Of a DNA stretch of 34,407 nucleotides, positions 1,447-32,619 are shown piece after piece. Numbering within the stretch: position 1 is the stretch's first letter; each line of letters starts with the position of its first letter. Made by a program: the position numbers and the translations under genes. The notes below the pieces were generated by a model. That model was not told the DNA's origin. It saw nothing but the letters and a program-made list of their open reading frames with translations, and searched no databases. The DNA is from a virus (taxonomy: Duplodnaviria; Heunggongvirae; Uroviricota; Caudoviricetes; Peduoviridae): the IMG/VR virus record IMGVR_UViG_2541047772_000007; one strand, given 5' to 3'.

Positions 1447-1533
1447 GCTGAAAAACATAACCCATAAAATGCTAGCTGTACCAGGAACCACCTCCTTAGC
1501 CTGTGTAATCTCCCTTACACGGGCTTATTTTTT
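1447..1533 (+). ncRNA. cyaR: CyaR (RyeE) small RNA, intact copy; its 3' end forms the left attachment core
   Basis: Sequence GCTGAAAAACATAACCCATAAAATGCTAGCTGTACCAGGAACCACCTCCTTAGCCTGTGTAATCTCCCTTACACGGGCTTATTTTTT recognised as CyaR; ends in a hairpin plus T-run intrinsic terminator. Lies between yegQ and ogr as in E. coli K-12 (cyaR, then the ogrK remnant). Coordinates +/-2 nt. Confidence 0.8.
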
Positions 1534-1534
1534 A
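1507..1534. repeat. attL core: 28-bp direct repeat AATCTCCCTTACACGGGCTTATTTTTTA (3' end of cyaR)
   Basis: Identical 28-mer recurs at about 32592-32619 next to int. Read directly from the sequence; +/-1 nt. Confidence 0.8.
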
Positions 1535-1596
1535 CGCGTAATTCAATGAAATAAAAGGATTTATTTCTGGTCACGTCCACACATTGACCACATCGA

Positions 1597-1625
1597 CAAA
1601 AAAGCCCCTCGACTGAGGGGCTTTC
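1597..1625 (-). terminator. Intrinsic terminator downstream of ogr (hairpin AGCCCCTC-GACT-GAGGGGCT followed by a T-run on the minus strand)
   Basis: Perfect 8-bp stem with 4-nt loop immediately 3' of the ogr stop; the A-run on the plus strand is a U-run on the ogr transcript. Confidence 0.55.
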
Positions 1626-1634
1626 TGTTTGTAA

Positions 1635-1853
1635 TTACATCCACATAATTTGCTGCCCTGACGGTAACGGGTGCGGCCTTACGGCGTGGACTTCTCCCGG
1701 CTTCACGATGTATCGCTGTACCGACTCATAAGTGATGAACGTGGCGCTGCAATTCACGTTCTGGCACTGGTGATAACGCTCTTTTGTCGTGTCAGTGATA
1801 TAGCGACTTGTACGCGCATGTGCGGCATGCTGGCATAAAGGACAATGAAACAT
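1635..1853 (-). CDS. ogr: Late-gene transcriptional activator Ogr (zinc-finger, 72 aa)
   Basis: MFHCPLCQHAAHARTSRYITDTTKERYHQCQNVNCSATF... recognised as P2 Ogr. The track ORF (93 aa, TTG start) is trimmed to the ATG at residue 22 to give the P2 length of 72 aa. Confidence 0.9.
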   Translation of the reverse strand: MFHCPLCQHAAHARTSRYITDTTKERYHQCQNVNCSATFITYESVQRYIVKPGEVHAVRPHPLPSGQQIMWM

Positions 1854-1934
1854 CGCGAGCACCTCTTCCGGTTTTGTTGATGGTGCCATTTTAGTTAATT
1901 TATCCTTATAAAACAAACAGATAAATAAATTACA

Positions 1935-3098
1935 TCACTCATCATCTTCTGTTTCGTACTCCACATCAGAAAGCCTGACCTCAAGCTCTAAGGACGTCGT
2001 GAAGCCGCTATTATTCAGAAAATGTGTCACCTTAGTGATTGTCCAGTCCTGCTCGTCTATGACGCGCTTAAAGCCTGATACTTTAACCGGTGTTTCCGTG
2101 TAAATATCAGCACGACCGGTAGCCAGGCTGATGGAGAACTCCGCAACGCCCCGTTGCAGTTTATCCCACTTCGCCTGAGCGGCACGCATGGCCTGTGCTT
2201 TCGTGGCATATACCGTGGTCAGGGCAAAAACGTTGTCAGCCTCACCGGCCATGTATTCACCTTCGCGCGCTTCCGGTACTTTTGGCGCTTTCTTCTGCCT
2301 GACCGGTTTTGCTTTCGGGTGCTCCAGTGCGCGCAGGTGTTTTTCTTTCTTTTTGCGTTTCAGTTTTACCTTCTGCTTTTGCGGCTTCGGGTCTTTGGTG
2401 TGTAACCACTTTGCCGTTACGCCGGTATAGGCTCCACGGTCAGCAATCGCAAAATGATGGCGGTCGCCGTCGCTGCGGGTGATGGTGACCTGCGGGATTT
2501 TTTTACCGCTGGCCGTCACCCCCTGCCCCGCTTTGAGAAACAACAGTTTTCCCATTTTTACCGACACCTCACCGCCGTTGCGTTCTGCAAGACGGGTCAG
2601 GAATTTCGCATCAGACTCCTGCGACTGGTCGATGTGCGGGATTTTAATTCCGGCCAGTGACGGAGCGACACTGGCTTCCAGCCTGTTACGGGAGGCTATC
2701 GCCTCAACAATCGCACCGAGCGTGGTGTCATGCCAGGAGCCTTCCCGGCGGGAATTGAGCGTCCCGCGGAAATCTGCACTCCGAGCGCGGATGGTGACCA
2801 CATCCGGCGCGCCCCGGTGTTCAACCTCATCAACGGTGAATTTCCCTTTGCATACCAGGGCAAAACCTTTCCAGCCGATATACACCGTCAGGACAGCGCC
2901 ACGAACCGGCAGCCCGACCTGCCCGTCGGCATCGTTCAGTTCAATATCAAGCTGGTCAGCTTCAAAGCCCCGGTTATCCGTCAGAGTCATGCTCATCAGA
3001 CGGTCGCTGATATTGCCGGTAATATCCCTGCTGTCGAGCATCAGCATGTAATCCGGCGTCAGCGTACTGCCTGCATCAAATGTCAGCGCATCCAGCAT
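1935..3098 (-). CDS. D: P2 gpD-like tail/late protein (387 aa)
   Basis: Length and position (between U and ogr) match P2 D; lysine/proline-rich linker in the middle; start overlaps the U stop. Confidence 0.85.
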   Translation of the reverse strand: MLDALTFDAGSTLTPDYMLMLDSRDITGNISDRLMSMTLTDNRGFEADQLDIELNDADGQVGLPVRGAVLTVYIGWKGFALVCKGKFTVDEVEHRGAPDVVTIRARSADFRGTLNSRREGSWHDTTLGAIVEAIASRNRLEASVAPSLAGIKIPHIDQSQESDAKFLTRLAERNGGEVSVKMGKLLFLKAGQGVTASGKKIPQVTITRSDGDRHHFAIADRGAYTGVTAKWLHTKDPKPQKQKVKLKRKKKEKHLRALEHPKAKPVRQKKAPKVPEAREGEYMAGEADNVFALTTVYATKAQAMRAAQAKWDKLQRGVAEFSISLATGRADIYTETPVKVSGFKRVIDEQDWTITKVTHFLNNSGFTTSLELEVRLSDVEYETEDDE

Positions 3099-3577
3099 TA
3101 TCCCGCCCCCATCATACCTGTGAATCTGGTCGCCAGACTGCCGGCCTTACCGATGAGCGACTCCGCCTGTTTACCGATATCGCCATAAAGCGCGGCCAGT
3201 GATTCATCAACGCGGGTGAGCGACAGCGTAAAATCAATTTTCCGGGGTGTGCCGTCTGCAAAGAAAATACTCCCTGTTTCACTCACCTTGCTGATGACAT
3301 ACATACCGTAAATCATGCCGGTGCCATCCAGCAACGGCCACGCCCGGCCTTCCTCTGCCATCAGTCTGAGCGTGGTCATCGTCAGCTTGCCGCCGGTCAG
3401 TTCGGGATAAAGCACACCGGCAAGCGTGATGTTTTCCTCGCCCACACCGAGAAACTGAAAGGCATCCCGTTTACCGATACGGGAATTTGACGGCCAGCGA
3501 TAATCTGATTCACGCTGCATGGTCTGGTGTGGCAGCGTCTGGCGCATAAAAACAAACATACCTAACGCGAGCATCAT
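3098..3577 (-). CDS. U: P2 gpU-like tail protein (159 aa)
   Basis: Synteny downstream of T; length matches P2 U. Confidence 0.85.
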   Translation of the reverse strand: MMLALGMFVFMRQTLPHQTMQRESDYRWPSNSRIGKRDAFQFLGVGEENITLAGVLYPELTGGKLTMTTLRLMAEEGRAWPLLDGTGMIYGMYVISKVSETGSIFFADGTPRKIDFTLSLTRVDESLAALYGDIGKQAESLIGKAGSLATRFTGMMGAG

Positions 3578-3591
3578 TTTTCGTCACCTCC

Positions 3592-6039
3592 TTAACCGTC
3601 ATGCATCATGCTGGCACGGGCGCGCGCACGTTTATCCCGCTCGTATTTTTCGAGCGCATCCTGTAACTGGCAGTCGAGCTGAGTCCCCGGCGCAGTACCG
3701 CCCGTCAGACTGATGTGATATTCGTTTTTACTCTGGTCCACATAAGAGCGGCCAGCCGGTGCCGTAACCGGCTGATAAGCCTGATAGCCTGCATAAGAGC
3801 TGGTCGCCGGAATATAACCACCGGTGCCATACGTGGCGGCATGAGTTCTGGCGGCGGTCTGGTCAAGCGTGCCTGACTCTTTGTTGATAACACCGAGTTT
3901 TTCCAGTACCCAGTCAATACCGCTGCGCAGTTTGTTGAACGCATTAAGCGGCAGCATCAACGCGTCAGCCAGTGCCTGCCCGAACATGACGCCTGTATCA
4001 CGGCAACGGTTCAGGGTGTCCCGGGTGGCTTTGACCGGGGCAATCAGGTTTTTAAACCACTGCCACGCGGCCTGTAACTTTTCGCCCAGCCAGTCAAACA
4101 CCGGCTTAAGTGGCGTGAACAGTTCCCCCACCGGCGCAAATGCCGCTTTCAGCCCTTCAACCACACCGCCAAAGAATGCGCTGACAGGCTCCCAGTATTT
4201 ACGGATAAGTAACGCCCCGGCGACAATGGCGGCCACCACGGCCACAACCGGCCAGCTAATCGCCCCGATGGCCGTCATAACAGCACTGCCAACCGTCGTG
4301 AAGATTGCTCCCATTGCGCCTGCTGCCGCGATGATGGCATTGATGCCGGTGATAACCGGCCAGGCTACGAGGCCAATGGCACCGATGATGCCAGTCAGCA
4401 CCAGTGCACCGCCGGCAATGATGCCGATGGTTGACGCCAGTGATTTGTTTTTCTGTATCCAGCCGTCGAGTTTTAACACATACTTTGTGGCCGTCTGCGT
4501 GAGCTTACGCAGTGCGCCTTCCTGCTGGTCAAACAGGTCAGTCCCTACCGCCTCATAAGCGGACTGAAACTCCTTAAAGTCACCGCCGAGGTTGTCCTGC
4601 ATGATATTTACCAGCTCAGCGGTCTTCCCGTCTGAGGCTTTAAACGCAGCGGTCAGTTTGTCCAGATTTCCAGTTGAGGCGGCAGTCATCAGCACGGCGG
4701 CGGCTGAGCTGGCCTCCTCCCCGAAAATAGTTTTCATGTATTCAGCCTGCTGGGCAGTACCGAGCCGGTTTTTCTCAAAACTGGCCTGCATTTCTTTCAG
4801 AATGGTAAATACTGGTCGGGTGTTTCCCTTGCTGTCTGAGGTTTTCACACCAAGCTCTTTGAGTGCATCCCATGCTTTTCCCGTCGGTGCCTGCAGGCGG
4901 CTTAACACGGCACGGCTTCCCGTCCCCGCCATTGAACCAGTAATTTTTGCGTCATGCAGCGCCCCGACCATTGCGGCGGTTTCTTCAATGCTGACACCGG
5001 CATTTTTTGCCACTGGTGCGGCATAGGTCAGCGCATCGCTCATACCGTCAAAATCGGCGGCGGTTTTGTTCATCGTCATGGAGAGAACATCCCCGATATG
5101 AGCGACCTTATCGTTTGAAAGCTGAAAGGCGGATTTCATCCCCATCAGCAGGGCGGCGTTTTCTTCCATCGTGCGACGGTTCGCCAGCGCCATATTCAGC
5201 GTGACCGGCGTTGCCGCCTGAATGGCATCAACATCCCCACCGGCTTTCGCAATAATAATCTGCGCACCGGCTGCATCATCTGCCGAGGCTGCGGTATTGT
5301 CGCCGAGCTGGCGCGCCTGCTTGCGGAGTGCGGTCATTTCGGCGGAGTCTTTTGCCACACCGAGCACGGCCTGTAATTCTGAGTTTTTCTGCGCAAACTC
5401 ATAACCGGGCATCAGCAACTTAACTCCGGCCATCGTTCCCGCAGCAGCAATCCCCACACCGGCAGCGCCCACTGAGGCCATATTTCCGGCCAGCTCCTTT
5501 CCTGCCTGATAACGCTGTTTTACTGCGTTAAGTTTTGCCTGTTGCGCACTGACACGCGCCAGCGCGTCACGCTGCCGGTTAAGCTGTGCGGTGGTTTCAC
5601 TGATACGGTTTTTCAGCCCCTGCTCATCATGTGCAAGATTGCGGGTATTAATTCCCACAGCGGCCAGTTCCCGCTGCTGGCGTTTAACGGAATCCGTCAG
5701 GCGGTTATATTTCGCCTGTAAGTCCTCCGCCGCACGCTTTGCGGATTCCAGCACTTTCGCCTGAGCACGGGTCGGACGTTCAGTGTTTTTAAACTGTGTG
5801 GCAAGGGCTTCGGCCTCCTGCCGTGCCTTTTCAAGTGCATGACCAGTCACGGCGAGCTGTGCGCTGGTCTTGCGAAATCCCTCAATACGGGATGCGTGAC
5901 CGTTCAGCTCGCGCAGTGATTTTTGTGTTTCCCGGATATCCCCCGACAGCGACTTGCTCGCTGTGCGGATGGATTTAAACGGGCGGGATGCCTGGTCAAC
6001 AGCCCTGAGCAATACCTGTAATTTTACATTGTTACTCAT
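3592..6039 (-). CDS. T: Tail tape measure protein (815 aa)
   Basis: 815 aa, Ala/Gly-rich with a hydrophobic central segment and coiled-coil N-terminus; located after E/E' as in P2. Confidence 0.9.
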   Translation of the reverse strand: MSNNVKLQVLLRAVDQASRPFKSIRTASKSLSGDIRETQKSLRELNGHASRIEGFRKTSAQLAVTGHALEKARQEAEALATQFKNTERPTRAQAKVLESAKRAAEDLQAKYNRLTDSVKRQQRELAAVGINTRNLAHDEQGLKNRISETTAQLNRQRDALARVSAQQAKLNAVKQRYQAGKELAGNMASVGAAGVGIAAAGTMAGVKLLMPGYEFAQKNSELQAVLGVAKDSAEMTALRKQARQLGDNTAASADDAAGAQIIIAKAGGDVDAIQAATPVTLNMALANRRTMEENAALLMGMKSAFQLSNDKVAHIGDVLSMTMNKTAADFDGMSDALTYAAPVAKNAGVSIEETAAMVGALHDAKITGSMAGTGSRAVLSRLQAPTGKAWDALKELGVKTSDSKGNTRPVFTILKEMQASFEKNRLGTAQQAEYMKTIFGEEASSAAAVLMTAASTGNLDKLTAAFKASDGKTAELVNIMQDNLGGDFKEFQSAYEAVGTDLFDQQEGALRKLTQTATKYVLKLDGWIQKNKSLASTIGIIAGGALVLTGIIGAIGLVAWPVITGINAIIAAAGAMGAIFTTVGSAVMTAIGAISWPVVAVVAAIVAGALLIRKYWEPVSAFFGGVVEGLKAAFAPVGELFTPLKPVFDWLGEKLQAAWQWFKNLIAPVKATRDTLNRCRDTGVMFGQALADALMLPLNAFNKLRSGIDWVLEKLGVINKESGTLDQTAARTHAATYGTGGYIPATSSYAGYQAYQPVTAPAGRSYVDQSKNEYHISLTGGTAPGTQLDCQLQDALEKYERDKRARARASMMHDG

Positions 6040-6459
6040 TCGTGTTTCCGCTTCGCCGGAGCGCCTTTTCGCGCCATGTGATGAGTTCGGTCAGGCTCAT
6101 GGGATACAGTTCTGATGGCGGCCAGTGAAATATCACTGCCACATCCGCCATCAGGTCATCGACCGACAGATTTTTCGGGAACGTTACTGCACCGAGTTCG
6201 GCGACAAAAAACCGACCACCTTACCGGCCAGCGCCACAAGGTCAGGCAGTTCCAGCGCGGCGACTTCCTGCTCGGTCAGCATCGGTGCCGTCATGCGCGG
6301 CAGCACCTTAATCAGTGCATCGACTTCTGAGTTTGCGACCGCAGCCAGACTGACACCGCGCAGCGTCCCCGCACTGGGTTTCATCAGCGTGACCTGTTCG
6401 ATAACCTGCTCACCACGCTTGACCGGATTGTCCAGGGTAATGACATTTTCTTTGTTCAT
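6032..6459 (-). CDS. E+E' tail assembly chaperone produced by a programmed -1 frameshift (about 141-142 aa)
   Basis: After the T6G slippery site (plus-strand about 6205-6213) the -1 frame stays open for about 58 codons (...MADVAVIFHWPPSELYPMSLTELITWREKALRRSGNTNE) and stops at 6032-6034, overlapping the T start codon. This matches the known P2 E/E' arrangement. Confidence 0.75.
6184..6459 (-). CDS. E: Tail assembly chaperone E (91 aa)
   Basis: 91 aa ending ...GKVVGFLSPNSVQ; contains the GGTTTTTTG slippery heptamer near its 3' end. Confidence 0.9.
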   Translation of the reverse strand: MNKENVITLDNPVKRGEQVIEQVTLMKPSAGTLRGVSLAAVANSEVDALIKVLPRMTAPMLTEQEVAALELPDLVALAGKVVGFLSPNSVQ

Positions 6460-6515
6460 GGTTTTCTCACTTCTGAATCAGGGTTAACCGGTCAGCCAGG
6501 CTGACCGGATGAAAA

Positions 6516-7034
6516 TCACAGGCCGATATTTCGGCGGTGTTGCTCCAGCCGGTCGACGCCGTTCACCTTCTCAATCATGTTGATGGTGTCGATTTCGACC
6601 AGCTCCTTACCGTCCATCGTCAGCCGGAAATAGGTGCAGACCACGGAGATTTTCGACTCGGTGTCTTCTCCCTGTTTACCCTCGCCGGTATCGATTTCTT
6701 TCTGACGTCCACGCATGACCACTTCGACGGCCACCGTTTCGCCGGTATCGTCGCGCTGGTAAGAGCCTGCAAAACGAATCGGCACGGCATCCACACCGGT
6801 TGCGGCGTAAAGCTCCCAGATAACCGAATCCGGGAAGCCCCCGAGCGACCACTCCATTGACAGCGCATCGTCATCAAGGCCGAGGTCTACCGGTGCGCTG
6901 CCGTTCATCCCCGCACCGCGATAGTTTTCGAGCTTACGGGTCAGTTTTGGTAGCGTGACGGACTTCGCGACGCCCTGATAGCTGTAGCCGTTCAGAAAGA
7001 CGTTCATTAACTTGAGTTTGCGCGGCATTGCCAT
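6516..7034 (-). CDS. FII: Tail tube protein FII (172 aa)
   Basis: Length and synteny with P2 FII, directly downstream of FI. Confidence 0.9.
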   Translation of the reverse strand: MAMPRKLKLMNVFLNGYSYQGVAKSVTLPKLTRKLENYRGAGMNGSAPVDLGLDDDALSMEWSLGGFPDSVIWELYAATGVDAVPIRFAGSYQRDDTGETVAVEVVMRGRQKEIDTGEGKQGEDTESKISVVCTYFRLTMDGKELVEIDTINMIEKVNGVDRLEQHRRNIGL

Positions 7035-7046
7035 CGGTCAGGCTCC

Positions 7047-8237
7047 TTAATTGCTGTTAACCGAGGTGACCAGATTTGCCAGGTATTTATCGGTAATACG
7101 CTGGCGCAGGGTCAGGTTTTCAAGAGGAGGCACCGGTGTATAGTCGTAGTCGATATACAGTTTTCCGGCCTTGAGGGTTTCCGCATCGTTGGATTCTTCA
7201 CTGAACCAGCAGGTCGCATCCACGATATAGCCGTTTGTTTTCAGCTCTCGGAATTTGGCATTGATGCCGTCAACGATGTCGCGAATCAGCGTTGCGGTGA
7301 TGGGCTTGTCCACCGCCCACATGTGCGCCTCAGCCATCGTGTCGGCCAGCACCTGCGCGGTGCGGGTGTAGTTTTCAAAGAGGAACAGCGGGTCATCAGA
7401 GCAGGTACGGTTACCCCAGAAGCGGAAACCGTCACGACGAATCAGCGTTGTGACGCCTGACTCGTTCAGCAGGTCAGCATCGGTGCCGGACTCCTGCAAA
7501 TCCCAGAATACAGATGCGCTGATGCCGGTAACACCGTTCACCCCGACGTTGGACAGCGTTTTATGCCAGCCCTGCTCCTGGTCGATTTTAGAGCGCAGCC
7601 CCAGCGCACGGGCGGTGGCATACGCGGTGGCGGTGGTACTGGTGACAGTATCCCATGCGAGGAAATCCGGCCAGATGACCATCAGCTCACGCTGGCTGAA
7701 ATTCTGGCGGTAAGCTTTCACCTCGGAAATGGTTTTACATCCCCATGCGCTGATATACCCGAAAGCGCGCAGCTTCTGACAGACTGATGCCAGTGCAACA
7801 GCCACCTCTTTGGTATCCAGTCCCGGCACGCCGAGAATACGCGGTTTAACACCGGTTACCGACTCTGCCGCCAGCAGGGCTTTCAGTCCGGTATACTGAC
7901 CGTTTTCGTCGGTGGTGCCGATGATATTGGAAACGGTCTGCGCGAGTTTCGTTTCCTCGTCATCACCGGTGCCGTCTTCCACGCGCACGACAACGGTGAC
8001 CGGTTTTGACTGGTCTGCGATGGCCTGCAACGATGCCGCCAGCGTGCCTTTTTTACCGGCCTTTGCAATTGCGCTCTGCACATTGGTAATCAGCACAGGT
8101 TTATTGAGGGGGAAGGTTTCCGCATCCGCATCGCTGGCCGTGCAGATCATGCCGACAATGGCAGTGGATACGGTGGAAATGACGCGGGTGCCGTCGTTAA
8201 TCTCCAGCACCTGCACGCCGTGATGATAGTCACTCAT
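7047..8237 (-). CDS. FI: Contractile tail sheath protein FI (396 aa)
   Basis: 396 aa, same length as P2 FI; N-terminus MSDYHHGVQVLEINDGTRVI... is sheath-like. Confidence 0.9.
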   Translation of the reverse strand: MSDYHHGVQVLEINDGTRVISTVSTAIVGMICTASDADAETFPLNKPVLITNVQSAIAKAGKKGTLAASLQAIADQSKPVTVVVRVEDGTGDDEETKLAQTVSNIIGTTDENGQYTGLKALLAAESVTGVKPRILGVPGLDTKEVAVALASVCQKLRAFGYISAWGCKTISEVKAYRQNFSQRELMVIWPDFLAWDTVTSTTATAYATARALGLRSKIDQEQGWHKTLSNVGVNGVTGISASVFWDLQESGTDADLLNESGVTTLIRRDGFRFWGNRTCSDDPLFLFENYTRTAQVLADTMAEAHMWAVDKPITATLIRDIVDGINAKFRELKTNGYIVDATCWFSEESNDAETLKAGKLYIDYDYTPVPPLENLTLRQRITDKYLANLVTSVNSN

Positions 8238-8330
8238 CCGTTTAACTCCGTGGTTAATGGGTGCAACTATTTTCTGTTGTGCAGAGCATGAGACGCTATT
8301 TGACCTGGCTGGTCAGTGGATGAAACAACA

Positions 8331-8360
8331 GATAAAGAAAAGGCGGGCAATTCGCCCGCC
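8331..8360 (-). terminator. Putative intrinsic terminator downstream of the Z/fun-position moron
   Basis: GC-rich hairpin GGCGGGC-loop-GCCCGCC followed on the minus strand by a T-rich run; sits about 200 nt past the moron stop and before the FI start. Confidence 0.4.
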
Positions 8361-8566
8361 TGTCCTGATTTGAACTCACTCATTTTCCGACTGACAATTT
8401 ACATAGCCCAAAAGTTATCAAATCTGACGGTCTGCTTTGAACAAGAAGCGGACATTTGCCTGTCAGGGTATATGCCGCTCTGCGGTTATTATCCAGAATC
8501 AATAATTCATCTGAGTTGGATTACATATAAAACATAGTTACCCCATGAATAACCATTAGCAGATTA

Positions 8567-9160
8567 TCAATTATGTAAATCTTTTGTTTTATGTTCTTTG
8601 GCGTGTTGTGACAACAAATGGCTATAGCGTTTAAGCAAAATATTAGAAAGATTAAGCTCATTCATGAAGTGTTCTTCTAATAAGTAACCATCAATATCAA
8701 CTTTAATATCATTACCACTTTTCATCTTCTGTAACGTAGATTTTACACGCTCCAGCAGGATGCTTTGCTCATGGTAATAGTCCATAAGAAGAGTAACATC
8801 CTCTTTATCAAGCTTACTTAATTCGCTGAAGTAGGATTTAAACACTTTATCAGTCTGGTTTAATGCAATCTGTAAGCGAGGCCCCCCTAATGATTTGACA
8901 TTAATGGCAAAAGGCTCGCCAACAAAATGCTCCGAATTTTCGTCAAAGCCAATATATCTCGTTTTATCAAGAAAAGTGAGAGCGCGATGGTTATTAGCGA
9001 TTTCATATGCAAACATTGTTCTGATACTGTCCCTCTCAGCCTCCATGCTTATATCATCACGATGATTTGTATAAAATATATTTCCAACAAAGAGAACCAT
9101 AGCAAGAATCACTGAACTTGCCTCCCAGTTAATATTTTTTAATCGTCGCTTAGTAAACAT
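8567..9160 (-). CDS. Hypothetical membrane-anchored protein (197 aa), moron at the Z/fun position between G and FI
   Basis: ATG start preceded by an AAGGTG Shine-Dalgarno; N-terminal basic stretch plus one hydrophobic helix (SSVILAMVLFVGNIFY); strongly AT-rich compared with flanking phage genes; flanked by AT-rich intergenic regions. No family recognised. Confidence 0.7.
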   Translation of the reverse strand: MFTKRRLKNINWEASSVILAMVLFVGNIFYTNHRDDISMEAERDSIRTMFAYEIANNHRALTFLDKTRYIGFDENSEHFVGEPFAINVKSLGGPRLQIALNQTDKVFKSYFSELSKLDKEDVTLLMDYYHEQSILLERVKSTLQKMKSGNDIKVDIDGYLLEEHFMNELNLSNILLKRYSHLLSQHAKEHKTKDLHN

Positions 9161-9381
9161 ACCGCACCTTAATTATCAAAAATATTCCTTCAGTGTTATC
9201 TGGTTAGCCTAAACCAAGTCATTAAAGTCTGCAGGATATCATATACATAAAATGTATTGATTAGAATTTGCACTAATAAAATAATGCTTTACTAAAATCT
9301 ACTCCAGACACAGAGCGGCCTGTCAGATTAGGCTTTACTCTGTGCCATAGATATGTTTGCTCACTCCAGAGATCATACAAC

Positions 9382-24527: not shown

Positions 24528-24949
24528 CGCCCGCTTCATGGGTCGGTTTTAATGCAGGTGCATGACCACCATGGTGTCGCGCCTATTCTGACGGAGCACG
24601 ATCTAAACTAGCAGCTCCAACGCATGCAAAACAATGCGCCTAATGCTTGCACATCTGAAAATAAAAATCGTGTAGAAAGATATAGCAAAGTCTGCATATT
24701 AAAGCTGGCTGGCACGCAACTCATATCGCAGTGATTTGCCAATTACATTGCGCAAAATTTACACTAACAACGGTTATCAAGAAGCAGGCGCAAATTGATT
24801 ATCAAAAACTCGATCTAATCTATTGATCTAGACACGAATATTTATGCATCCTGATATTGTTTTAAAGGTCTTTGATTGCCTAATCAAGTCCTGCACTACT
24901 TTGGCGTACAACACTTACATAAAGTTGAAAACTACAGAAGGGCACAAGA

Positions 24950-26035
24950 ATGGGTTACGAAGTTGATTTCTTAGCAGTTGGAGAAAAAAAAAGTGGAGAT
25001 GCTATCTGCATAAGATGGGGCAACCTCCACGGAACAAGAGCAGAGCAAAAAGTTGTCGTAATTGATGCGGGGTACGCAAGCACTGGTCCACAAATAATTG
25101 AACATTTACAGAAATACTATCATACAAATACTATTGACTTACTCATATCCACGCATCCAGATAGCGACCATGCTGGCGGCCTTGAGCATGTGATTGAGAA
25201 TGCGGAAGTCAAAGAGTTCTGGATTCACCAGCCTTGGGAGCATAATGAAAATCTCGCGCAGGAATTTGCTGATGGAAGGATAACAGATGCAAGTATTGCC
25301 AGACGTATACAAGATAATCTACAAAAAGCCTATGATGCCGTCAAATCAGCGAAAAAAAAAGGAATAGAAATTAAGGAGCCTTTTCAAGGCAGGACTTGGG
25401 ACAATTCTAAACTGGTTGTTATTGGACCAACACAAGCATACTATGAAACATTAATCCCCGATTTTGCAAGAATGCCTGAAAAAGCAGAAACAACTGCAAC
25501 CAGTGGTACAGATGCATATAACTACTTTTTTGAGAAAGCCAAAGAACAAGTCGAGTATATTGCTGATTGGTTCTCTGATGAGGGAATTGATGACAAGGAC
25601 ACAACTACTGCACAAAACAATTCAAGCGTTATATTAAAAATTGAAATTGACAATAAAACACTAGTATTTACAGGTGATGCAGGAATAACTGCATTAGATA
25701 TGGCTGCTGATCATATAAATAATAACTCATTATCATTTATTCAAGTGCCCCACCATGGAAGCAGGAGAAACATCGGTCCAGCGGTGCTAAATAAGCTCGT
25801 TGGAAATATTGTAAGCGAAGGAGGAAGAAGTGGTGTTTGTGCATTTATATCATGCGCACCGGATTCCGATAAACACCCTCATCAAGCGGTCATTAATGCT
25901 TTTACAAGGCGTGGAGCCAAAGTAGTCGCCACAGAAGGCACCAATAAACGCCATTCTAGTAATGCCCCCGCCAGAGATGGCTGGACTGCAGTCACCCCAC
26001 GCTCATACGCAAGGAGTTATAAGACTGAAGAATAA
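24950..26035 (+). CDS. ComEC-like metallo-beta-lactamase-fold hydrolase (361 aa), putative nuclease; cargo gene at the P2 tin/old position
   Basis: Motifs in the translation: FLAVGEKKSGDAICIRWG....VVVIDAGY, STHPDSDHAGG (HxDxDH metal-binding motif), LVFTGDAG, VPHHGS. Strongly AT-rich. This ORF is distinct from P2 tin and old (the P2 old product is an OLD-family ATPase-nuclease). Confidence 0.75.
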   Translation: MGYEVDFLAVGEKKSGDAICIRWGNLHGTRAEQKVVVIDAGYASTGPQIIEHLQKYYHTNTIDLLISTHPDSDHAGGLEHVIENAEVKEFWIHQPWEHNENLAQEFADGRITDASIARRIQDNLQKAYDAVKSAKKKGIEIKEPFQGRTWDNSKLVVIGPTQAYYETLIPDFARMPEKAETTATSGTDAYNYFFEKAKEQVEYIADWFSDEGIDDKDTTTAQNNSSVILKIEIDNKTLVFTGDAGITALDMAADHINNNSLSFIQVPHHGSRRNIGPAVLNKLVGNIVSEGGRSGVCAFISCAPDSDKHPHQAVINAFTRRGAKVVATEGTNKRHSSNAPARDGWTAVTPRSYARSYKTEE

Positions 26036-26041
26036 TTCGTT

Positions 26042-26061
26042 AAGCTGCCTTAGGGCAGCTT
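26042..26061. terminator. Bidirectional hairpin between the convergent cargo genes (AAGCTGCC-TTAG-GGCAGCTT)
   Basis: Perfect 8-bp inverted repeat in the short gap between the MBL gene stop and the membrane-protein gene stop; overlaps the last codons of the latter. Confidence 0.5.
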
Positions 26062-26538
26062 ATTATTAGCCTTACTCACTCTTAATGTAATAAACTTAAT
26101 TTGCTTAACGTACGACACAATAAAAACAAAAATCAAAAACAATGAAATCCATTTCGACGCCATGTAATCACCACCAACTACAAACGAAACAAAAAACAAA
26201 GAAAACAAAAAAACCAAGGACATAGAGAATAACGTCCTATACATATTTGCAGTTTCTTGAAGAAGCTCTATTTTATTATCCTTTCTACATGCTGAGATAT
26301 ATTCCTCATATGGAACAAATTTTACCAGCCCCAAAAACTTCAACACAGGCTCAAAAACAATAGACCCAATCCTTCCGATAATTATCCCCGTAAAATAGTA
26401 AAGTACCACATTCTTAACAACATCATCTGTGGATAATATCACATTGGTTGCCCGCTCAAACAAATAAATAAACAAAGCACCGGGAAAGAGATTGTTAAAT
26501 ATATTATAAGACGATATTTTTTCCCATAAACCATCCAT
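26050..26538 (-). CDS. Hypothetical small integral membrane protein (about 162 aa, about four predicted transmembrane helices); second cargo gene
   Basis: ATG (MDGLWEK...) preceded by an AAGGTG Shine-Dalgarno; the track ORF starts 3 codons earlier at a GTG. Hydrophobic segments LFPGALFIYLF, VVLYYFTGIIIGRIGSIVF, LFSMSLVFLFSLFFVSFVVGG, WISLFLIFVFIVSYV. AT-rich, convergent with the MBL gene. Confidence 0.7.
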   Translation of the reverse strand: MDGLWEKISSYNIFNNLFPGALFIYLFERATNVILSTDDVVKNVVLYYFTGIIIGRIGSIVFEPVLKFLGLVKFVPYEEYISACRKDNKIELLQETANMYRTLFSMSLVFLFSLFFVSFVVGGDYMASKWISLFLIFVFIVSYVKQIKFITLRVSKANNKLP

Positions 26539-26653
26539 ACAACACACCTTTTAACCAATTTTAAAGACGCCATTTTCATCAAAAGAAACAAAAATAGCAA
26601 GAACATCAGAACAAACTCTTTGAACACCTGAAAATATTATGTTCCGACACCAT

Positions 26654-28933
26654 TCATTTTGTAAAAGCAGAATATCCCAAACACACATCGATTGTAGGAT
26701 ATATAAACGTCTTCCTGCCATATGTTATGGTAGCCCCTCGCGCCAGCGCCTCAAGCTCCCATCGCTGCGGCCTGATACCGTTCTGAGCAAGGTCAACGCG
26801 GATACGGGTAATTTGCATTCGTTCCGACCGGGTCAGTCTGGCCGATGGCGCTATTTCATGCGGTTTTAACGGGCTTCCGTTTCTTTGCTGACGGTTTGGT
26901 CTTCTCAGGCCGTGTTTTAATGCGCTTCTGAGCGCCCTCACGACCTCCGGGTCATTCCATTCGATAACACCGTCATCAACCAGATTAAGCACTGCTGCGG
27001 CGTGCTCAGAAGGCGTGGGAGCCGGTAACGAAGTATCACCACCGGTGAGCTTTCCACAGTTATTGACAGGACTCCGAGGCGCGGCGATGCCGCTTTTTAA
27101 AGTCAAAGGCTCAACGACCGGAACTTTCGGCACAATGCGCCAGTCCGTCGTTCTGGTGATATGAATATGACGCGCGCCGAGATGCGGCGCGTAAATGCCG
27201 ACCACTCTCTCGACCTCTTCCTCGTACTCGTTAACATCATCCGACGGGCTACGGGCAACCCTGACAGTCTGACAATCACGCGGGACATTTGCCCCACCCT
27301 GCGCGCTGATATACAACGCAAAATCACCACTGTCTGCGGCAGCGCGAGCAGCCTCGACGCGTTCGTCAAACTCATCAGCAATACTGACGCCGCGAGGCAA
27401 TTTGCGTAGTTCACGGTAAGCCCCCATTGTCGGCAGTCCAACCGTTTTAAATTGCGGGATGCGCCACGTTGACGCCCATGCGGTAACAGCCGCGGCAGTA
27501 TCTTTAAGCGGCTTACCGGTATCGTTATCGAGCTGACCATCCAGTGCATAGCCGTCGATATTTTTTGAAATGTATTTCGCGATATATCCCGCAGCACCGC
27601 CCCGGTTAAGGTGTTTTGCCTGAAAACGGTTTCGCGCGGCTCCTCTTTCGTCGCCATCCTCTTTGAGCGCATAGCGGCGCATGATTTCGATAATCTGGTT
27701 ACGCTGGCGTGGATTACAAAAAAGCATCATATGCCAGTGCGGCGTTCCGTCGTGGTGTGGCTCGACGACTCGCAAACCGTAGACCTGTAAATCATTATCC
27801 TTGAATGCCGTGCGCATCAGGCTCCAGATACGGCAGAGATAACGCTGCGCATCCTTTGGATTGAATGCCTCATCATTCCAGCCGTGATTAAGCTGGACGG
27901 TTTTACTTTCGCCTTTTCCGACCTGACGTGTCGGGTGATACTTTGACGGCGCGGTCAGCGTGATAAACATCCCCACATCACCCTCTGCGGCGGCGTAACG
28001 CTCAATACCGGCAATGGTGTTCATCAGCTCCATCCGGCGAATTTCAGGATTAGAAATACTGCCCATCACCTTACTGATAAGGTCGATGCGCTCGCCGGTT
28101 TCCCTGTTTTCAAGGTCACACGATTTAAGAAATTCCAGATTTGCCTGGCGGCGCGCACGCACATCACGAATGGCGTGTTTACTGGCATAAGGAGAACGGT
28201 CTTTATTGACCTCCCCGACAGCTATCAGTAACGCTTCATGCCAGCGCATACGCTGGCCTTTAAGCTGATGAGTCCACCACTCATCGTTAAACAGACGGGC
28301 AATGGCAGAATATGCCTGCCTCGTGGTCATCAGCCCTTTACGGTATTTTTTCCAGTAGAGAGGGGAAATATTGAAAGCACGTGCAGCGCCAGCAACATGA
28401 CCATAGAGGTGAGCCTGCGCCTCATCCGTAAACAGCGATTCTTTTTCGCCATGCGCATCCACCCAGGCATCGCTGAGTTCCTCATACATCATGAAAAGCT
28501 GCGATGAGATACGGGCAGCAAACTTTTTCAGCTCCTTGTCATTCATTCCCGGCAGGCGCGCATAGTGGTCACGCTCTGCCAGAAACAGTAACGACGCGTC
28601 GGTGTTCATTTCATGGCGCTGATTCACACGCTCAATGCGCGGCCATAAACGACGCTGAAAAGTGGATGTGAGGAAATAAAACCCGTGCACCGGGCTTTTA
28701 TTGCGCCGGATGTAGTCATAGCGTGAAGTAAACAGCGAGCGCAAAAAGTAAGGCAGGCGGTTAATCGTGGATAAAACACCTTGCACCTGACGCATCTCGT
28801 CACGTGTAAGAGGTCTTTCGCGCCCGACAGCCTCGCGTGGCGCGTTCCATGCATAAGCACCGGTAAACGCCTTACCGGTGCCTGCGGCAAATGCTGACGG
28901 AGGGACAAAACGCCCGGAGGCTTTAACGGCCAT
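26654..28933 (-). CDS. A: Replication initiation protein A (rolling-circle nickase, about 759 aa)
   Basis: Begins MAVKASGRFVPPSAFAAGTGK... and contains the PHHDGTPHWH HUH-type motif; P2 A-like. The track ORF starts 14 codons upstream (alternative start 28975). Confidence 0.85.
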   Translation of the reverse strand: MAVKASGRFVPPSAFAAGTGKAFTGAYAWNAPREAVGRERPLTRDEMRQVQGVLSTINRLPYFLRSLFTSRYDYIRRNKSPVHGFYFLTSTFQRRLWPRIERVNQRHEMNTDASLLFLAERDHYARLPGMNDKELKKFAARISSQLFMMYEELSDAWVDAHGEKESLFTDEAQAHLYGHVAGAARAFNISPLYWKKYRKGLMTTRQAYSAIARLFNDEWWTHQLKGQRMRWHEALLIAVGEVNKDRSPYASKHAIRDVRARRQANLEFLKSCDLENRETGERIDLISKVMGSISNPEIRRMELMNTIAGIERYAAAEGDVGMFITLTAPSKYHPTRQVGKGESKTVQLNHGWNDEAFNPKDAQRYLCRIWSLMRTAFKDNDLQVYGLRVVEPHHDGTPHWHMMLFCNPRQRNQIIEIMRRYALKEDGDERGAARNRFQAKHLNRGGAAGYIAKYISKNIDGYALDGQLDNDTGKPLKDTAAAVTAWASTWRIPQFKTVGLPTMGAYRELRKLPRGVSIADEFDERVEAARAAADSGDFALYISAQGGANVPRDCQTVRVARSPSDDVNEYEEEVERVVGIYAPHLGARHIHITRTTDWRIVPKVPVVEPLTLKSGIAAPRSPVNNCGKLTGGDTSLPAPTPSEHAAAVLNLVDDGVIEWNDPEVVRALRSALKHGLRRPNRQQRNGSPLKPHEIAPSARLTRSERMQITRIRVDLAQNGIRPQRWELEALARGATITYGRKTFIYPTIDVCLGYSAFTK

Positions 28934-29198
28934 ATGAGCCAAAAGCCTCAGAACAACGCTTGCTGAGTTGCTCAACCTGCGCGTTTAAATCAGCAAAAGA
29001 CTTTGCGCTTCCGGTCAGAATATCGTGATGCATCAGGCCGGAAACGAGCTGGCTTAATTTCGGGTAATAACCAACCACCGCCAGCCATTCCTGACCGGCG
29101 TTTTTACCGCTTTCCGCTCTCTTTTTCTCGTGGAGAATAAACTGAAAGCTGTCACTGGTAACGACATAACGTTCGCCAATTTCGATACGAATACTCAT
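28923..29198 (-). CDS. P2 orf83-like early-operon protein (91 aa)
   Basis: Position immediately upstream of A in the early operon; length as for P2 orf83. Confidence 0.6.
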   Translation of the reverse strand: MSIRIEIGERYVVTSDSFQFILHEKKRAESGKNAGQEWLAVVGYYPKLSQLVSGLMHHDILTGSAKSFADLNAQVEQLSKRCSEAFGSYGR

Positions 29199-29419
29199 GC
29201 CATTCTCCGGTAATGCTTGTTTTTTGCTTCAAAGACTGACTGGCAGGAAACACAACGCGTGGCTGACGGATAAGCTGCACGACGGGCAGCAGGTATTGGC
29301 GCGTCACACTCTTCGCAAACCAGCGCAGAAACACCGCTATGTTTTACCCTTGCCGCGTTAATCTGGCGCTCCAGTAATTCAGCCTGTTGTTCCTGAATAA
29401 AATCTATGTTGTCCGGCAT
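29195..29419 (-). CDS. P2 orf82-like TraR/DksA-type C4 zinc-finger protein (74 aa)
   Basis: CEECDAPIPAARRAAYPSATRCVSCQ is a DksA/TraR-type zinc-finger motif; early-operon position. Confidence 0.7.
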   Translation of the reverse strand: MPDNIDFIQEQQAELLERQINAARVKHSGVSALVCEECDAPIPAARRAAYPSATRCVSCQSVFEAKNKHYRRMA

Positions 29420-29724
29420 TACCAGCTCCTTTTGTCGTTCAGCTTCTTAAATTCATCAGCGCAATAGCTGGCGATTTCTGTCGTTAATTTTGTCAGTTCA
29501 TCCACGGATGAAATTTGCTTATGAAATACAGCGCGTTTAACAAGTAAATTGACCACATCAGACAGGAGGTTTAATTCATTCTGATAAATCGCGATAACAG
29601 ATTCAGTTATGTCGCGTTTTTCTTTATCAAGACAAAGTTGAATAAGAGACAAATCGCCATTTTTCATAACGGCGATTTTTAAGGCGTTATTCAGTAATAC
29701 AACTGAATGAGAACAGGACATCAA
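29419..29724 (-). CDS. P2 orf81-like hypothetical protein (101 aa)
   Basis: Early-operon position; tightly packed with neighbouring genes (start/stop overlaps); AT-rich. Confidence 0.55.
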
Positions 29725-29945
29725 AGCACCTCCCCGCGAGACAATCCGATATTGTGAAATTTTTCCGACTCCTGACTGAGCAGCTCGACTATCTCCACGC
29801 GGGATAACTCCGCCTTTGTGATATGGCGAATCATGGCGTCAAGATGAGAAGAAAAGCGCGTCGCAGCATCAGCCTGTGCTTCGGTTCTGGCCTGTTGCAG
29901 CAGTAATGCGTATTTACCGCACTGATTTTCAGAAACTGTATGCAT
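29721..29945 (-). CDS. P2 orf80-like hypothetical protein (74 aa)
   Basis: Early-operon position; track ORF (TTG start) trimmed to the ATG (MHTVSENQ...). Confidence 0.55.
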
Positions 29946-30008
29946 GACTTTCTCCAGGCAAAAAGAAGCCCCGCACAATTAAGTGCGTTAAAAACTCTGG
30001 TTAATTAC

Positions 30009-30509
30009 TTAATGCAGATATTGCTCTGGTTTTACCGACGTCAGAATTGTCGGTGCATACTCAAACAGGCTGAATAATTCACGTAATGCACGGAATAAAG
30101 CATCACGCCAGTAACATGATTCTTCATTAATGCGCCAGTACGGCTGATTGAATTCTTTTTCTGTCAATCCCGCATGCATAAATAAAGTACGACGCTGACT
30201 GACTGTTAAAAAACTAATATATGCATACTCACTTGCACCGACCTGACGGCGTTTTGAGAATGCCCCGCGCAGTTCATCAATTGCACAAACCAGCCGTTCA
30301 CGTTCGACGTCGTTCATTTCTTCAAAACGCATCGTTGCGTGACGTTGTTTTAACTGCGCATGGAAGCAAACCGTTAACCGTTCGCGTTCCATCATCTGAT
30401 TATAATAATCACATGTATCCTGCCAGCGAGGAACGGCAAGATGCTTACCAATTATCCGACGCATGGTTGCTGGCTGTTTTTCAACGAGATTGAGCGTCAT
30501 CACTGTCAT
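30009..30509 (-). CDS. B: Replication protein B (about 166 aa)
   Basis: Length and position match P2 B; the start could equally be the ATG two codons upstream (30515). Confidence 0.8.
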   Translation of the reverse strand: MTVMTLNLVEKQPATMRRIIGKHLAVPRWQDTCDYYNQMMERERLTVCFHAQLKQRHATMRFEEMNDVERERLVCAIDELRGAFSKRRQVGASEYAYISFLTVSQRRTLFMHAGLTEKEFNQPYWRINEESCYWRDALFRALRELFSLFEYAPTILTSVKPEQYLH

Positions 30510-30676
30510 TTCCATACCCTCCGGCTTTTCAGAAAGGTCAGAGCCTTTTTTAACGGACTCTGTTTTTTGGTGCGGATAATGATTCCCTTGCGTCCCTTCC
30601 CGTGGGTGATGGTGAAGTCAATCGCCCTGGGGCTTTCGTTACGCAATAACTGAGCAATACAACGAGGCTCGTTCAT
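30506..30676 (-). CDS. P2 orf78-like small basic protein (56 aa)
   Basis: Between cox and B; track ORF (GTG start) trimmed to the ATG (MNEPRCIAQLL...). Confidence 0.55.
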   Translation of the reverse strand: MNEPRCIAQLLRNESPRAIDFTITHGKGRKGIIIRTKKQSPLKKALTFLKSRRVWK

Positions 30677-30686
30677 ACGGTTCTCC

Positions 30687-30962
30687 TTAACGTGGTTCAC
30701 CGAGACCTAACCACATCAACCAGCCGTCACGAATCTCTTTAGGACGGCTTTCATAAGCCAGTTTTAGTCCGTTATTCCATGCCGGAAGGTATACCCAATA
30801 TTCACCAGCACGCCCCGAAACTGACTGAGGGTCAGTAATCTCAATAACTGGTAATTTCCCTTTCTCAATCATGCCCCTTACAGCTCTTGGAGTTTTACCA
30901 ATGAGTTTTGCAAACTCCTGATAAGGCACGGCATCAGTCACGCTTACAAGCTGTCTATTCAT
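30687..30962 (-). CDS. cox: Cox (excision control / Pc repressor, 91 aa)
   Basis: 91 aa; C-terminal ...SGRAGEYWVYLPAWNNGLKLAYESRPKEIRDGWLMWLGLGEPR recognised as P2 Cox-like; first gene of the early operon. Confidence 0.85.
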   Translation of the reverse strand: MNRQLVSVTDAVPYQEFAKLIGKTPRAVRGMIEKGKLPVIEITDPQSVSGRAGEYWVYLPAWNNGLKLAYESRPKEIRDGWLMWLGLGEPR

Positions 30963-31083
30963 CTGCTACGATTCTCCCTTAGTGCTTCTAATGGCTCCTA
31001 ATGGCTAATTATTGCCTAAAAGGATAACTCCAGAAGCACAACATTTTACACTATCAGCAAGAAATTACGCAATCGGAGTAATT
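30963..31083. promoter_or_regulatory. Immunity switch region (divergent Pe/Pc promoters) containing tandem direct repeats CTAATGGCT-c-CTAATGGCT
   Basis: Intergenic region between divergent cox and C. Two 9-bp direct repeats with 10-bp periodicity at about 30989-31007, consistent with direct-repeat operator half-sites for a P2-type C repressor. Confidence 0.55.
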
Positions 31084-31383
31084 ATGTCAATAGACGTTTC
31101 GGAGAAGTTGAAGCTAATCCGTGAATCTGAAAGGTTAAACCGTAAAGAATTCAGTGAATTAACTGGTGTAGCCTACAGCTCACTTTCGAGCTATGAGAGC
31201 CGGTCAAAAAACGCTGGAGTTGAAGCCATAATGAAGGTCTTACAACATCCTAGATTTACTAAATATACTTTGTGGTTCATGACTGATCAGGTAGCTCCAG
31301 AAGCCGGGCAAATTGCGCCCGCTCTCGCACACTTTGGGCAAAACGAAACAACGTCGCCCCACTCCGGTCAAAAGACTGGTTAA
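31084..31383 (+). CDS. C: Immunity repressor C (99 aa)
   Basis: C-terminal half ...FTKYTLWFMTDQVAPEAGQIAPALAHFGQNETTSPHSGQKTG is P2 C-like; the N-terminal DNA-binding half diverges from my recollection of P2 C. Track ORF (alternative start) trimmed to the ATG giving 99 aa. Confidence 0.8.
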   Translation: MSIDVSEKLKLIRESERLNRKEFSELTGVAYSSLSSYESRSKNAGVEAIMKVLQHPRFTKYTLWFMTDQVAPEAGQIAPALAHFGQNETTSPHSGQKTG

Positions 31384-31498
31384 CAATTTATCGTGAATAT
31401 ATTCATCACAAGTGCCTACTATTGGTGGCTAAATTTCAGCCACCACGAAAAAAGCGATTAGTAGTAGCAAAAAAAAGTACCACTCGGAGGGTTTTCTG

Positions 31499-32512
31499 AT
31501 GGCAATCAAAAAACTCGATGATGGTCGATATGAAGTGGACATCCGCCCTACTGGACGTAACGGAAAACGCATCCGTAGGAAGTTTGATAAGAAAAGCGAA
31601 GCTGTCGCTTTCGAAAAATACACGTTGTACAACCACCACAATAAAGAATGGCTATCAAAACCAACAGACAAACGACGTCTGTCGGAACTGACACAGATCT
31701 GGTGGGATTTAAAGGGTAAACACGAAGAGCATGGGAAATCTAATCTTGGAAAAATTGAAATCTTCACAAAAATAACGAATGACCCATGCGCATTTCAAAT
31801 CACGAAATCCCTTATCAGCCAGTACTGCGCCACCCGAAGAAGTCAGGGTATTAAACCTTCGAGTATCAATCGTGATTTAACATGTATTAGCGGCATGTTT
31901 ACAGCCCTGATTGAAGCGGAGTTATTCTTTGGTGAGCACCCTATCAGAGGGACAAAGAGGCTTAAGGAGGAAAAACCAGAAACAGGCTATCTCACACAGG
32001 AAGAAATTGCCTTACTGCTTGCAGCACTTGACGGCGACAATAAAAAGATTGCGATTCTTTGCCTGAGTACAGGAGCACGTTGGGGAGAAGCAGCTCGTTT
32101 GAAAGCAGAAAATATCATCCATAACCGCGTCACGTTTGTTAAAACGAAAACAAACAAACCACGCACCGTCCCGATTTCAGAGGCTGTTGCCAAAATGATC
32201 GCGGATAACAAACGAGGTTTTTTATTCCCTGATGCTGATTACCCTCGCTTCAGACGAACAATGAAAGCAATAAAACCGGATTTGCCAATGGGGCAAGCCA
32301 CACATGCACTAAGGCACAGCTTTGCCACTCATTTCATGATTAATGGAGGAAGTATTATCACGCTACAACGGATACTAGGTCACACGCGGATTGAGCAAAC
32401 TATGGTTTACGCTCATTTTGCGCCAGAGTACCTTCAGGACGCCATTTCTCTTAATCCGCTAAGAGGTGGTACTGAGGCCGAGAGTGTCCACACAGTGTCC
32501 ACAGTAGAGTAA
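31499..32512 (+). CDS. int: Tyrosine integrase (337 aa)
   Basis: GGAGGG Shine-Dalgarno then ATG; C-terminal catalytic motifs HALRHSFAT and LGHTRIEQTMVYAHF; ends about 80 bp before the att core. Confidence 0.9.
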   Translation: MAIKKLDDGRYEVDIRPTGRNGKRIRRKFDKKSEAVAFEKYTLYNHHNKEWLSKPTDKRRLSELTQIWWDLKGKHEEHGKSNLGKIEIFTKITNDPCAFQITKSLISQYCATRRSQGIKPSSINRDLTCISGMFTALIEAELFFGEHPIRGTKRLKEEKPETGYLTQEEIALLLAALDGDNKKIAILCLSTGARWGEAARLKAENIIHNRVTFVKTKTNKPRTVPISEAVAKMIADNKRGFLFPDADYPRFRRTMKAIKPDLPMGQATHALRHSFATHFMINGGSIITLQRILGHTRIEQTMVYAHFAPEYLQDAISLNPLRGGTEAESVHTVSTVE

Positions 32513-32591
32513 CGTTTAAGGGCTTTCAGTGGTAATTTATGCCGCTCAAACCCGCATTGTACCGTTGAAAGCCCCTACTGGTGACACCCTA

Positions 32592-32619
32592 AATCTCCCT
32601 TACACGGGCTTATTTTTTA
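32592..32619. repeat. attR core: second copy of the 28-bp repeat AATCTCCCTTACACGGGCTTATTTTTTA (displaced cyaR 3' end)
   Basis: Identical to the cyaR 3' end at about 1507-1534; lies between int and yegR. +/-1 nt. Confidence 0.8.

Follow-up and report, generated by a model that had tools for sequence, protein, structure and literature searches.

The 34,407-nucleotide stretch of viral DNA analysed here (the window; IMG/VR record IMGVR_UViG_2541047772_000007) carries, at positions 1535–32619, an element that we identify with high confidence as a sequence-intact temperate phage of the P2 group (Peduovirus), inserted by an integrase identical to that of P2 at the core sequence in the terminator of the small RNA (sRNA) gene cyaR, between yegQ and yegR. 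The nearest phage records are those of Peduovirus. The element has the same gene order, 27-bp att core, P' arm, cos, ori and chromosomal target as P2 (NC_001895), and the two Int proteins are 100% identical. It differs from P2 in lacking orf30, fun(Z), orf91, tin and old, in carrying other cargo at two hotspots, and in its immunity switch and tail fibre. It would probably still be able to excise, to replicate and to package its DNA.

Both ends of the element are marked by AATCTCCCTTACACGGGCTTATTTTTTA, an exact 28-bp direct repeat at 1507–1534 and 32592–32619, located with a repeat finder and by direct reading, whose copies lie 31,085 bp apart from start to start. By our own arithmetic, such a pair of 28-mers is expected by chance about 1e-8 times in 34.4 kb. 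Over its first 27 bp, the repeat coincides with the attP core annotated in P2 (P2 24356–24382). The 28th base (A) is shared by coincidence, since the flanks diverge after it, reading ACGCG at attL and ATGCA at attR; WG5, a prophage-free derivative of E. coli C, has a seventh T instead. With one core copy counted, the inserted element is 31,085 bp long, and as a packageable unit this compares with 31.1–33.6 kb for the matched P2-like genomes. The original prediction had recognized the perfect repeat at both ends, and placed the left limit at 1447; this position corresponds to the 5' end of cyaR and not to the end of the prophage, which starts at 1535.

The two junctions have the architecture produced by P2 Int: the same 27-bp core stands at both, a P2-type int lies beside attR, and the P and P' arms are found on the inner sides of the cores. 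In the P arm inside attL, both Int arm sites are identical to those of P2, and the IHF stretch is a variant common to K-12 and to the record 720R8. The 70 nucleotides (nt) adjoining the core inside attR are identical to the P' side of P2, where the P2 record annotates the Cox-binding region and the Int P' site. Recombination within the shared core would leave one core copy at each end. At attL, the bacterial cyaR would then lead through the core into the phage P arm and ogr, and at attR, int and the P' arm would lead through the core into the old chromosomal sequence.

Deletion of the element in silico (1–1534 joined to 32620–34407) leaves 3,322 nt that are collinear from end to end with the yegQ–cyaR–yegR–yegS region of WG5 at 96.7% identity. 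The empty site is thereby restored, and the insertion is therefore clean and site-specific, at the place between yegQ and yegR that had been proposed. That the 28-bp repeat is a product of chance or of assembly, with no discrete inserted element behind it, is exceedingly improbable: the repeat is the attP core of P2 and is placed exactly where the P2 homology begins and ends, removal of the interval gives a natural empty site, and the same junctions recur in hundreds of independent complete genomes. A tRNA gene as the integration target is rejected, with zero tRNA or tmRNA genes within the window. We take the attachment site at the cyaR end to be locI, the preferred site of P2 in E. coli C. 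No paper in the literature searched was found to equate the P2 core explicitly with the cyaR terminator.

The cyaR gene is complete at the left junction. The Rfam model of CyaR (RF00112) matches 1445–1530 over all of its length (model positions 1–85 of 85) with 100.7 bits, compared with a gathering score of 47. In the predicted fold, an 11-bp terminator stem (1498–1508/1515–1525) is followed by the U tract. Of the 5' arm of this stem the repeat includes only the top two pairs, from which it continues through the loop, the 3' arm in full and the U tract. These results bear out the proposal that integration regenerated a full-length cyaR on the left and left a 3' fragment on the right. The promoter, the gene and the attL junction are the same as in K-12, where CyaR was characterised, so that a lysogen should make normal CyaR; since cyaR runs into the core at attL, the sRNA would be unchanged. 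The displaced fragment at attR was also considered as a terminator for int and rejected, as the predicted fold of the 86 nt around the core is no more stable than that of shuffled sequence (z = +0.67).

In K-12 (W3110), a cryptic remnant occupies the same locus, in agreement with the original prediction. It shows the same attL junction after cyaR, followed by ogrK and D' (yegZ), and matches window 1401–2147 over 747 nt at 96.8% identity. Only about 0.6 kb of the prophage is kept there: the last ~70 codons of D are fused to a partial core (...CTACACGGGCTTATTTTTTT), and the interior from D to int is gone.

To define the gene complement, the 42 annotated proteins of P2, as translated, were searched against the window by tblastn (E ≤ 1e-5). 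Matches were obtained for 37 of the 42, and 36 of these are full-length and without gaps, at identities of 65–100% (Q, P, O, N, M, L, X, Y, K, LysA, LysB, LysC, R, S, V, W, J, I, G, FI, FII, E, T, U, D, Ogr, Int, C, Cox, Orf78, B, Orf80–83 and A, the last over 755 of 761 amino acids (aa)). Orf30, Fun(Z), Orf91, Tin and Old gave no tblastn match in the window, and all five are annotated as non-essential in the P2 record. The P2 gene order is kept throughout, and no frameshift, stop or truncation is found in any essential gene. The original reading of the structural, lysis, replication, immunity and integration genes as full-length is thus upheld for all essential genes, which are ungapped (H being intact and mosaic).

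The noncoding and recoding signals are also well preserved. The cos site, correctly anticipated from the sequence, is exact over its 19 nt. The 50-nt ori match ends 25 nt past the annotated nick of P2 at 29892, the programmed −1 frameshift product E+E' is identical to that of P2 residue for residue, and the pO/pP activator site is exact at 21439–21469. At the DNA level, the alignment to P2 is collinear at 92–97% identity outside three hotspots and the fibre/G region (Table 1). Internal differences from P2, which would bear on the intactness originally claimed, are therefore present, but only in the non-essential hypervariable orf30, fun(Z) and old/tin/orf91 loci and at the fibre tip. The same layout is found in the deposited phages 12W, D8 and P24E6b.

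Table 1. Coordinates of the element, its modules and the chromosomal flanks in the window
Positions	Strand	Feature	Remarks
1–1362	+	yegQ (trhP), left flank	453-aa open reading frame (ORF); annotated yegQ/trhP in matching genomes
1445–1533	+	cyaR sRNA gene, full length, terminator completed by attL core	Rfam, fold, K-12 match
1507–1534		attL core (27-bp P2 core and one shared base)	Repeat finder, P2 attP comparison
1535–1634		attP P arm (IHF-site region, Int arm sites) and ogr/F-operon terminator	Aligned to P2 24265–24355
1635–1853	−	ogr, late-gene activator	72/72 aa, 100% identical to P2 Ogr
1935–8237	−	F operon	D 1935–3098, U 3098–3577, T 3592–6039, E 6184–6459, E+E' 6032–6459, FII 6516–7034, FI 7047–8237; full-length, ungapped, 98–100% identical
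8453–9308		fun(Z) hotspot, non-P2 DNA	Exception (gap) in P2 alignment; 36–42% G+C
8567–9160	−	197-aa ORF, same strand as tail genes	phrog_3829 (2e-137), function unassigned
9309–9967		G region	Aligned to P2 at only 77% DNA identity
9382–12666	−	Tail-fibre module	G 9382–9909, H 9913–12666
9968–12060		Distal tail fibre	Exception in P2 alignment
12677–15092	−	Baseplate genes	I 12677–13207, J 13200–14108, W 14113–14460, V 14457–15092; full-length, 93–99% identical
15093–15156		orf30 locus, empty	Exception in P2 alignment; 64 bp with hairpin in place of 938 bp (P2 9370–10307)
15159–21359	−	O operon (tail completion, lysis, head)	S, R, lysC, lysB, lysA, K, Y, X, L, M, N, O; full-length, ungapped, 91–100% identical
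21533–23305	+	P, terminase ATPase	100% identical to P2
23305–24339	+	Q, portal	98.5% identical to P2
24509–24527		cos, 19-nt cohesive-end sequence	Exact reverse complement of P2 GGCGAGGCGGGGAAAGCAC
24557–26711		old/tin/orf91 locus	Exception in P2 alignment
24950–26035	+	ComEC-type metallo-beta-lactamase-fold hydrolase, 361 aa (PDC-M48B)	
26050–26538	−	Hydrophobic 162-aa membrane protein (PDC-M48A)	Convergent with preceding gene, 14-bp gap
26654–30676	−	Early/replication operon	A 26654–28933, orf83, orf82, orf81, orf80, B 30009–30509, orf78; 93–100% identical, ungapped
27050–27099		ori, inside gene A	50 nt exact to P2 29868–29917
30687–31383		Immunity switch	cox 30687–30962 (−), Pe/Pc spacer, C 31084–31383 (+)
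31499–32512	+	int, tyrosine integrase	337/337 aa, 100% identical to P2 Int
32513–32591		attP P' arm side, Cox-binding region	Start of Int P' site overlaps int 3' end
32592–32619		attR core, displaced 3' fragment of cyaR terminator	
32620–32700		Chromosomal DNA right of attB, like a decayed P arm	Repeat family and alignment
32776–33093	−	yegR, right flank	
33508–34407	+	yegS	

The prediction, drawn from sequence, that the element can still complete its cycle has to be weighed against several observations. Loss of orf30 has also removed the annotated pV activator site of P2, and at pF the activator site (window 8238–8340) has diverged. The C repressor is found in only one of 50,697 phage records (720R8, which still has host flanks and is thus prophage-derived), and no virion-derived genome with the C/Cox switch was found among these records. 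Cox differs from that of P2 at 15 of 91 residues, mostly in the N-terminal part, while the Cox-binding DNA beside attP is identical to P2; the compatibility of Cox with att is assumed from the frequency with which the combination occurs. Finally, the exact combination of modules is absent from the collections searched, where the best whole-length match reaches ~98%.

Such observations could indicate a prophage that is cryptic or defective despite its intact frames, held by a regulatory or missense lock and retained for cargo that benefits the host. Such a lock might lie in a Cox that does not fit the P2-type att boxes, in late promoters of low strength or in substitutions that inactivate a protein. 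The missing pV site and the divergent pF site would fit this explanation, as would the 1–9% substitutions relative to P2 seen in many proteins and the presence of the switch DNA (window 30860–31250) in 349 of 5,426 complete E. coli genomes, when no virion-derived genome of the phage collection has it. We nevertheless regard a defective prophage as unlikely. The essential genes are free of frameshifts, stops and truncations; cos, ori and the frameshift site are exact; and the divergent promoter regions and the late genes align with the deposited phages 12W and D8. The loss of pV and the divergence of pF are not counted as defects, because 12W has the same short gap between S and V and aligns across both regions. 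Moreover, the uniform preservation of ~40 genes would not be expected under long-term decay, of which K-12 provides an example at the same site. For the prophage that had been called potentially inducible and functional, function is accordingly a reasonable prediction from the sequence, and inducibility is unsupported, as detailed below.

The immunity switch sets the element apart from P2. The C protein is 64.6% and Cox 83.5% identical to the P2 counterparts, the divergence lying in the N-terminal halves, and the operator spacer cannot be aligned. Cox and C are identical in 720R8 and in strain FDAARGOS_1289. One match to the switch is found in strain AS19, an E. coli B derivative, so that the switch may be of the P2 Hy dis class. 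Within an immunity class, C proteins are at least 95% identical to one another (PMC3448106). With a C protein at 64.6% and an unrelated spacer, the element falls outside the immunity class of P2.

The repressor is of the short P2 C type (99 aa) with a helix-turn-helix domain. No LexA box (CTGT-N8-ACAG) occurs within the window. A Tum-like gene is likewise absent: the early region holds no unaccounted ORF, and the ORF beyond A encodes the hydrophobic 162-aa protein, which has no Pfam match. On this evidence, an SOS-inducible prophage of the 186 type is rejected at present. Prophages of the P2 type are not known to respond to SOS induction, and their release is spontaneous only. In view of the P2 C-type repressor and the absence of a Tum gene and of LexA boxes, spontaneous release rather than SOS induction is expected for this element; by analogy with the biology of P2, release would be spontaneous or follow derepression by a satellite. 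The contrast between SOS-inducible and non-inducible phages has been mentioned previously (PMC7708051), and a tum gene is listed in a P2-like prophage of E. coli HS (PMC11195241).

The closest relatives over most of the element are the phages 12W, D8 and P24E6b, which match it at 96.7–98.3% identity in the late and replication genes and at both cargo loci. The long H fibre, the 197-aa gene and the pair formed by the metallo-beta-lactamase (MBL) and 162-aa genes all fall within this likeness. In contrast, the three phages have an integrase (331 aa), a C protein and a Cox (123 aa) of their own; their attachment site and immunity presumably differ as well. The element may be viewed as a mosaic in which late, replication and cargo modules of the 12W/D8/P24E6b type (~97–98%) are combined with an int–attP module as in P2 and a Cox/C switch of a non-P2 class that is common in E. 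coli. Among complete E. coli genomes, large pieces are matched at ~97–98% identity at best, and single modules reach 99.9–100% in some genome.

This patchwork of 12W-like late and cargo genes, P2-like int and 720R8-like switch could also have been built in place, if an incoming P2-like phage recombined with a resident prophage or remnant at cyaR, in which case the repeat would mark an older integration. The IHF stretch next to attL, which is of the K-12 remnant type and unlike P2, points in the same direction, as does the abundance of remnants and prophages at the cyaR site. However, mosaicism is general among P2-like phages, where it has been reported for the regulatory region (PMC3448106), and no assembly in situ is needed to account for it. 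We consider construction in place rather improbable, and since both routes yield the same structure, it is hardly an alternative as regards the identity of the element, which we continue to read as an inserted P2-group phage.

To estimate how common this arrangement is, complete E. coli genomes were queried with a 701-nt sequence that runs from the 3' end of int across attR to the yegR side, so that the required coverage of 80% needs both sides of the junction. The int–attR–yegR junction is present in 808 of 5,426 genomes (~15%, about one in seven). Window 1–25000 is covered to at least 80% in one place in more than 1,000 genomes. Given the frequency of the junction, the element is an ordinary example of a common prophage, and a P2-type prophage at the cyaR site is already known, textbook biology.

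The tail-fibre module differs from that of P2. G is 74% identical to P2 G at the protein level. H is an intact mosaic ORF of 917 aa, compared with 669 aa in P2, and matches P2 H by tblastn only at its two ends: the N-terminal 207 aa are P2-like at 84% identity, and the distal part is different. Phage 12W carries an H of 919 aa. Pfam assigns tail-collar and gp37_C domains to H. A comparison with PDB sequences relates H to the S/S' fusion of the Mu tail fibre (8ju3; E 2e-70 for the whole sequence, best over residues 668–765) and, at residues 847–913, to a short tail fibre (9cuy). The receptor specificity of the phage is likely to differ from that of P2.

Both cargo loci occupy hotspots that have been documented as defence-gene hotspots in P2-like phages (PMC9122126, PMC9519451), and both are A+T-rich, with 36–42% G+C as compared with ~55% in the backbone. 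The non-P2 cargo of these two hypervariable loci most likely serves the lysogen against other phages. At the fun(Z) hotspot, the 197-aa protein has a short N-terminal hydrophobic stretch and, apart from phrog_3829, no family match (Pfam, PADLOC or NCBIfam). Its gene is found in phage 12W and in 29 P2-like loci of IMG/VR at 94–100% identity, and is confined to close relatives in P2-like coliphages.

The old/tin hotspot contains two convergent genes. The first encodes a 361-aa protein of the MBL fold (Pfam Lactamase_B, 2e-13) that matches the PADLOC profile PDC-M48B (6e-99) and, more weakly, the MBL-fold defence components LmuA, RTasMBL and Avs1a. Its residues H69-x-D71-x-D73-H74, D243 and H268-H269 are invariant in 42 MBL homologues, down to 47% identity. 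The AlphaFold (AF2) model has a pLDDT of 90. Its closest fold in the PDB belongs to the ComEC MBL domain (9ic4, E 3e-15), with the pneumococcal phosphorylcholine esterase Pce ranking next. The protein is also of the ComEC type in sequence (TIGR00361, 7e-14), but it consists only of a soluble MBL domain of ~360 aa, which matches the 663-position ComEC_Rec2 model at its C-terminal MBL end alone. Identity as a competence protein is rejected, since the TIGR00361 score is 50.9 bits compared with a cutoff of 190 and the membrane channel region is unmatched. The RefSeq name 'ComEC/Rec2 family competence protein' is therefore misleading.

The second gene encodes the 162-aa protein, which matches PDC-M48A (PADLOC, 7e-49) and phrog_11864 and is predicted by hydropathy to have several membrane segments. 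All 12 complete IMG/VR loci with a gene for the 162-aa protein have the MBL gene beside it in convergent orientation, among them loci of phages in which gpA is only 37–43% identical. The same pair is found in a P2-like prophage of Yersinia enterocolitica, at 50% and 54% identity. In Chromobacterium, Microbulbifer and Aeromonas, MBL homologues (~50% identity) are followed by a co-directional gene for a membrane protein of 207–221 aa, and the Microbulbifer locus adjoins a type I restriction-modification system. These 207–221-aa partners show no similarity to PDC-M48A by BLASTP or PADLOC profiles; no profile–profile comparison was run. A promoter-like site at 26665–26636 scores 10 of 12; in promoter scans around the cargo, counts were no higher than the shuffled expectation.

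The two adjacent genes match the A and B profiles of PDC-M48 from end to end, and differ from that system in being convergent rather than operonic. Among 5,426 complete E. coli genomes, 22 carry the PDC-M48 module. By their description, PDC systems are candidates that have not been published; in the literature searched, PDC-M48 is nowhere named and experimental support for it was not found, and neither Rousset 2022 nor Vassallo 2022 refers to an MBL or ComEC-like gene in the main text. We tentatively put the pair, a ComEC-type MBL phosphodiesterase and a polytopic membrane protein, forward as a candidate two-gene anti-phage module, possibly a membrane-associated nuclease defence. In such a system, the 162-aa membrane partner would position or gate a nuclease like the one that ComEC applies to incoming DNA, and injected phage DNA might be degraded at the inner membrane, or the cell killed.

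The chromosomal DNA to the right of attB shows a phage-like feature of its own. Right of the core, CTGGTCACCGTCTTCCATTGACCACATCGA... at 32635–32678 resembles the phage P arm at 1567–1610. Prophage-free E. coli C shares this P-arm-like stretch, as do other E. coli and Shigella, and in the genome of a cryptic-clade strain (Escherichia sp. MOD1-EC7003) it survives in a longer form that takes in the IHF-site stretch. The 27-bp core is also identical at the cyaR end of Kluyvera and Enterobacter hormaechei, where unrelated DNA follows. The 'empty' site of Escherichia thus resembles a fixed, decayed attL. This suggests that the 'empty' attB of Escherichia may be the attL of a much older P2-like prophage. 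A statement to this effect was not found in the literature searched.

Variants of the locus are seen in other genomes. In Escherichia ruysiae, attL-type and attR-type junctions are both present on one contig, and yegR is apparently absent, because the attR core directly abuts the region upstream of yegS. In a genome labelled E. coli ECDA1023, a label that looks doubtful, and in Kluyvera intermedia, a divergent P arm like that of P2 adjoins the end of a cyaR of the Kluyvera type, so that the cyaR core serves as a target of P2-like elements in Kluyvera as well. In E. coli FDAARGOS_1289, which has the same switch and int module, the flank is 100% identical to that of the window, but an IS1 has inserted between yegR and yegS (at the place of window 33094–33507).

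The element provides a clean annotated example of a phage that targets an sRNA terminator without damage to the sRNA, and it can be compared with the decayed remnant that K-12 retains at the same junction. Its practical value lies in the cargo, as the element is one of few carriers of the MBL and membrane-protein pair at the main defence hotspot of P2.

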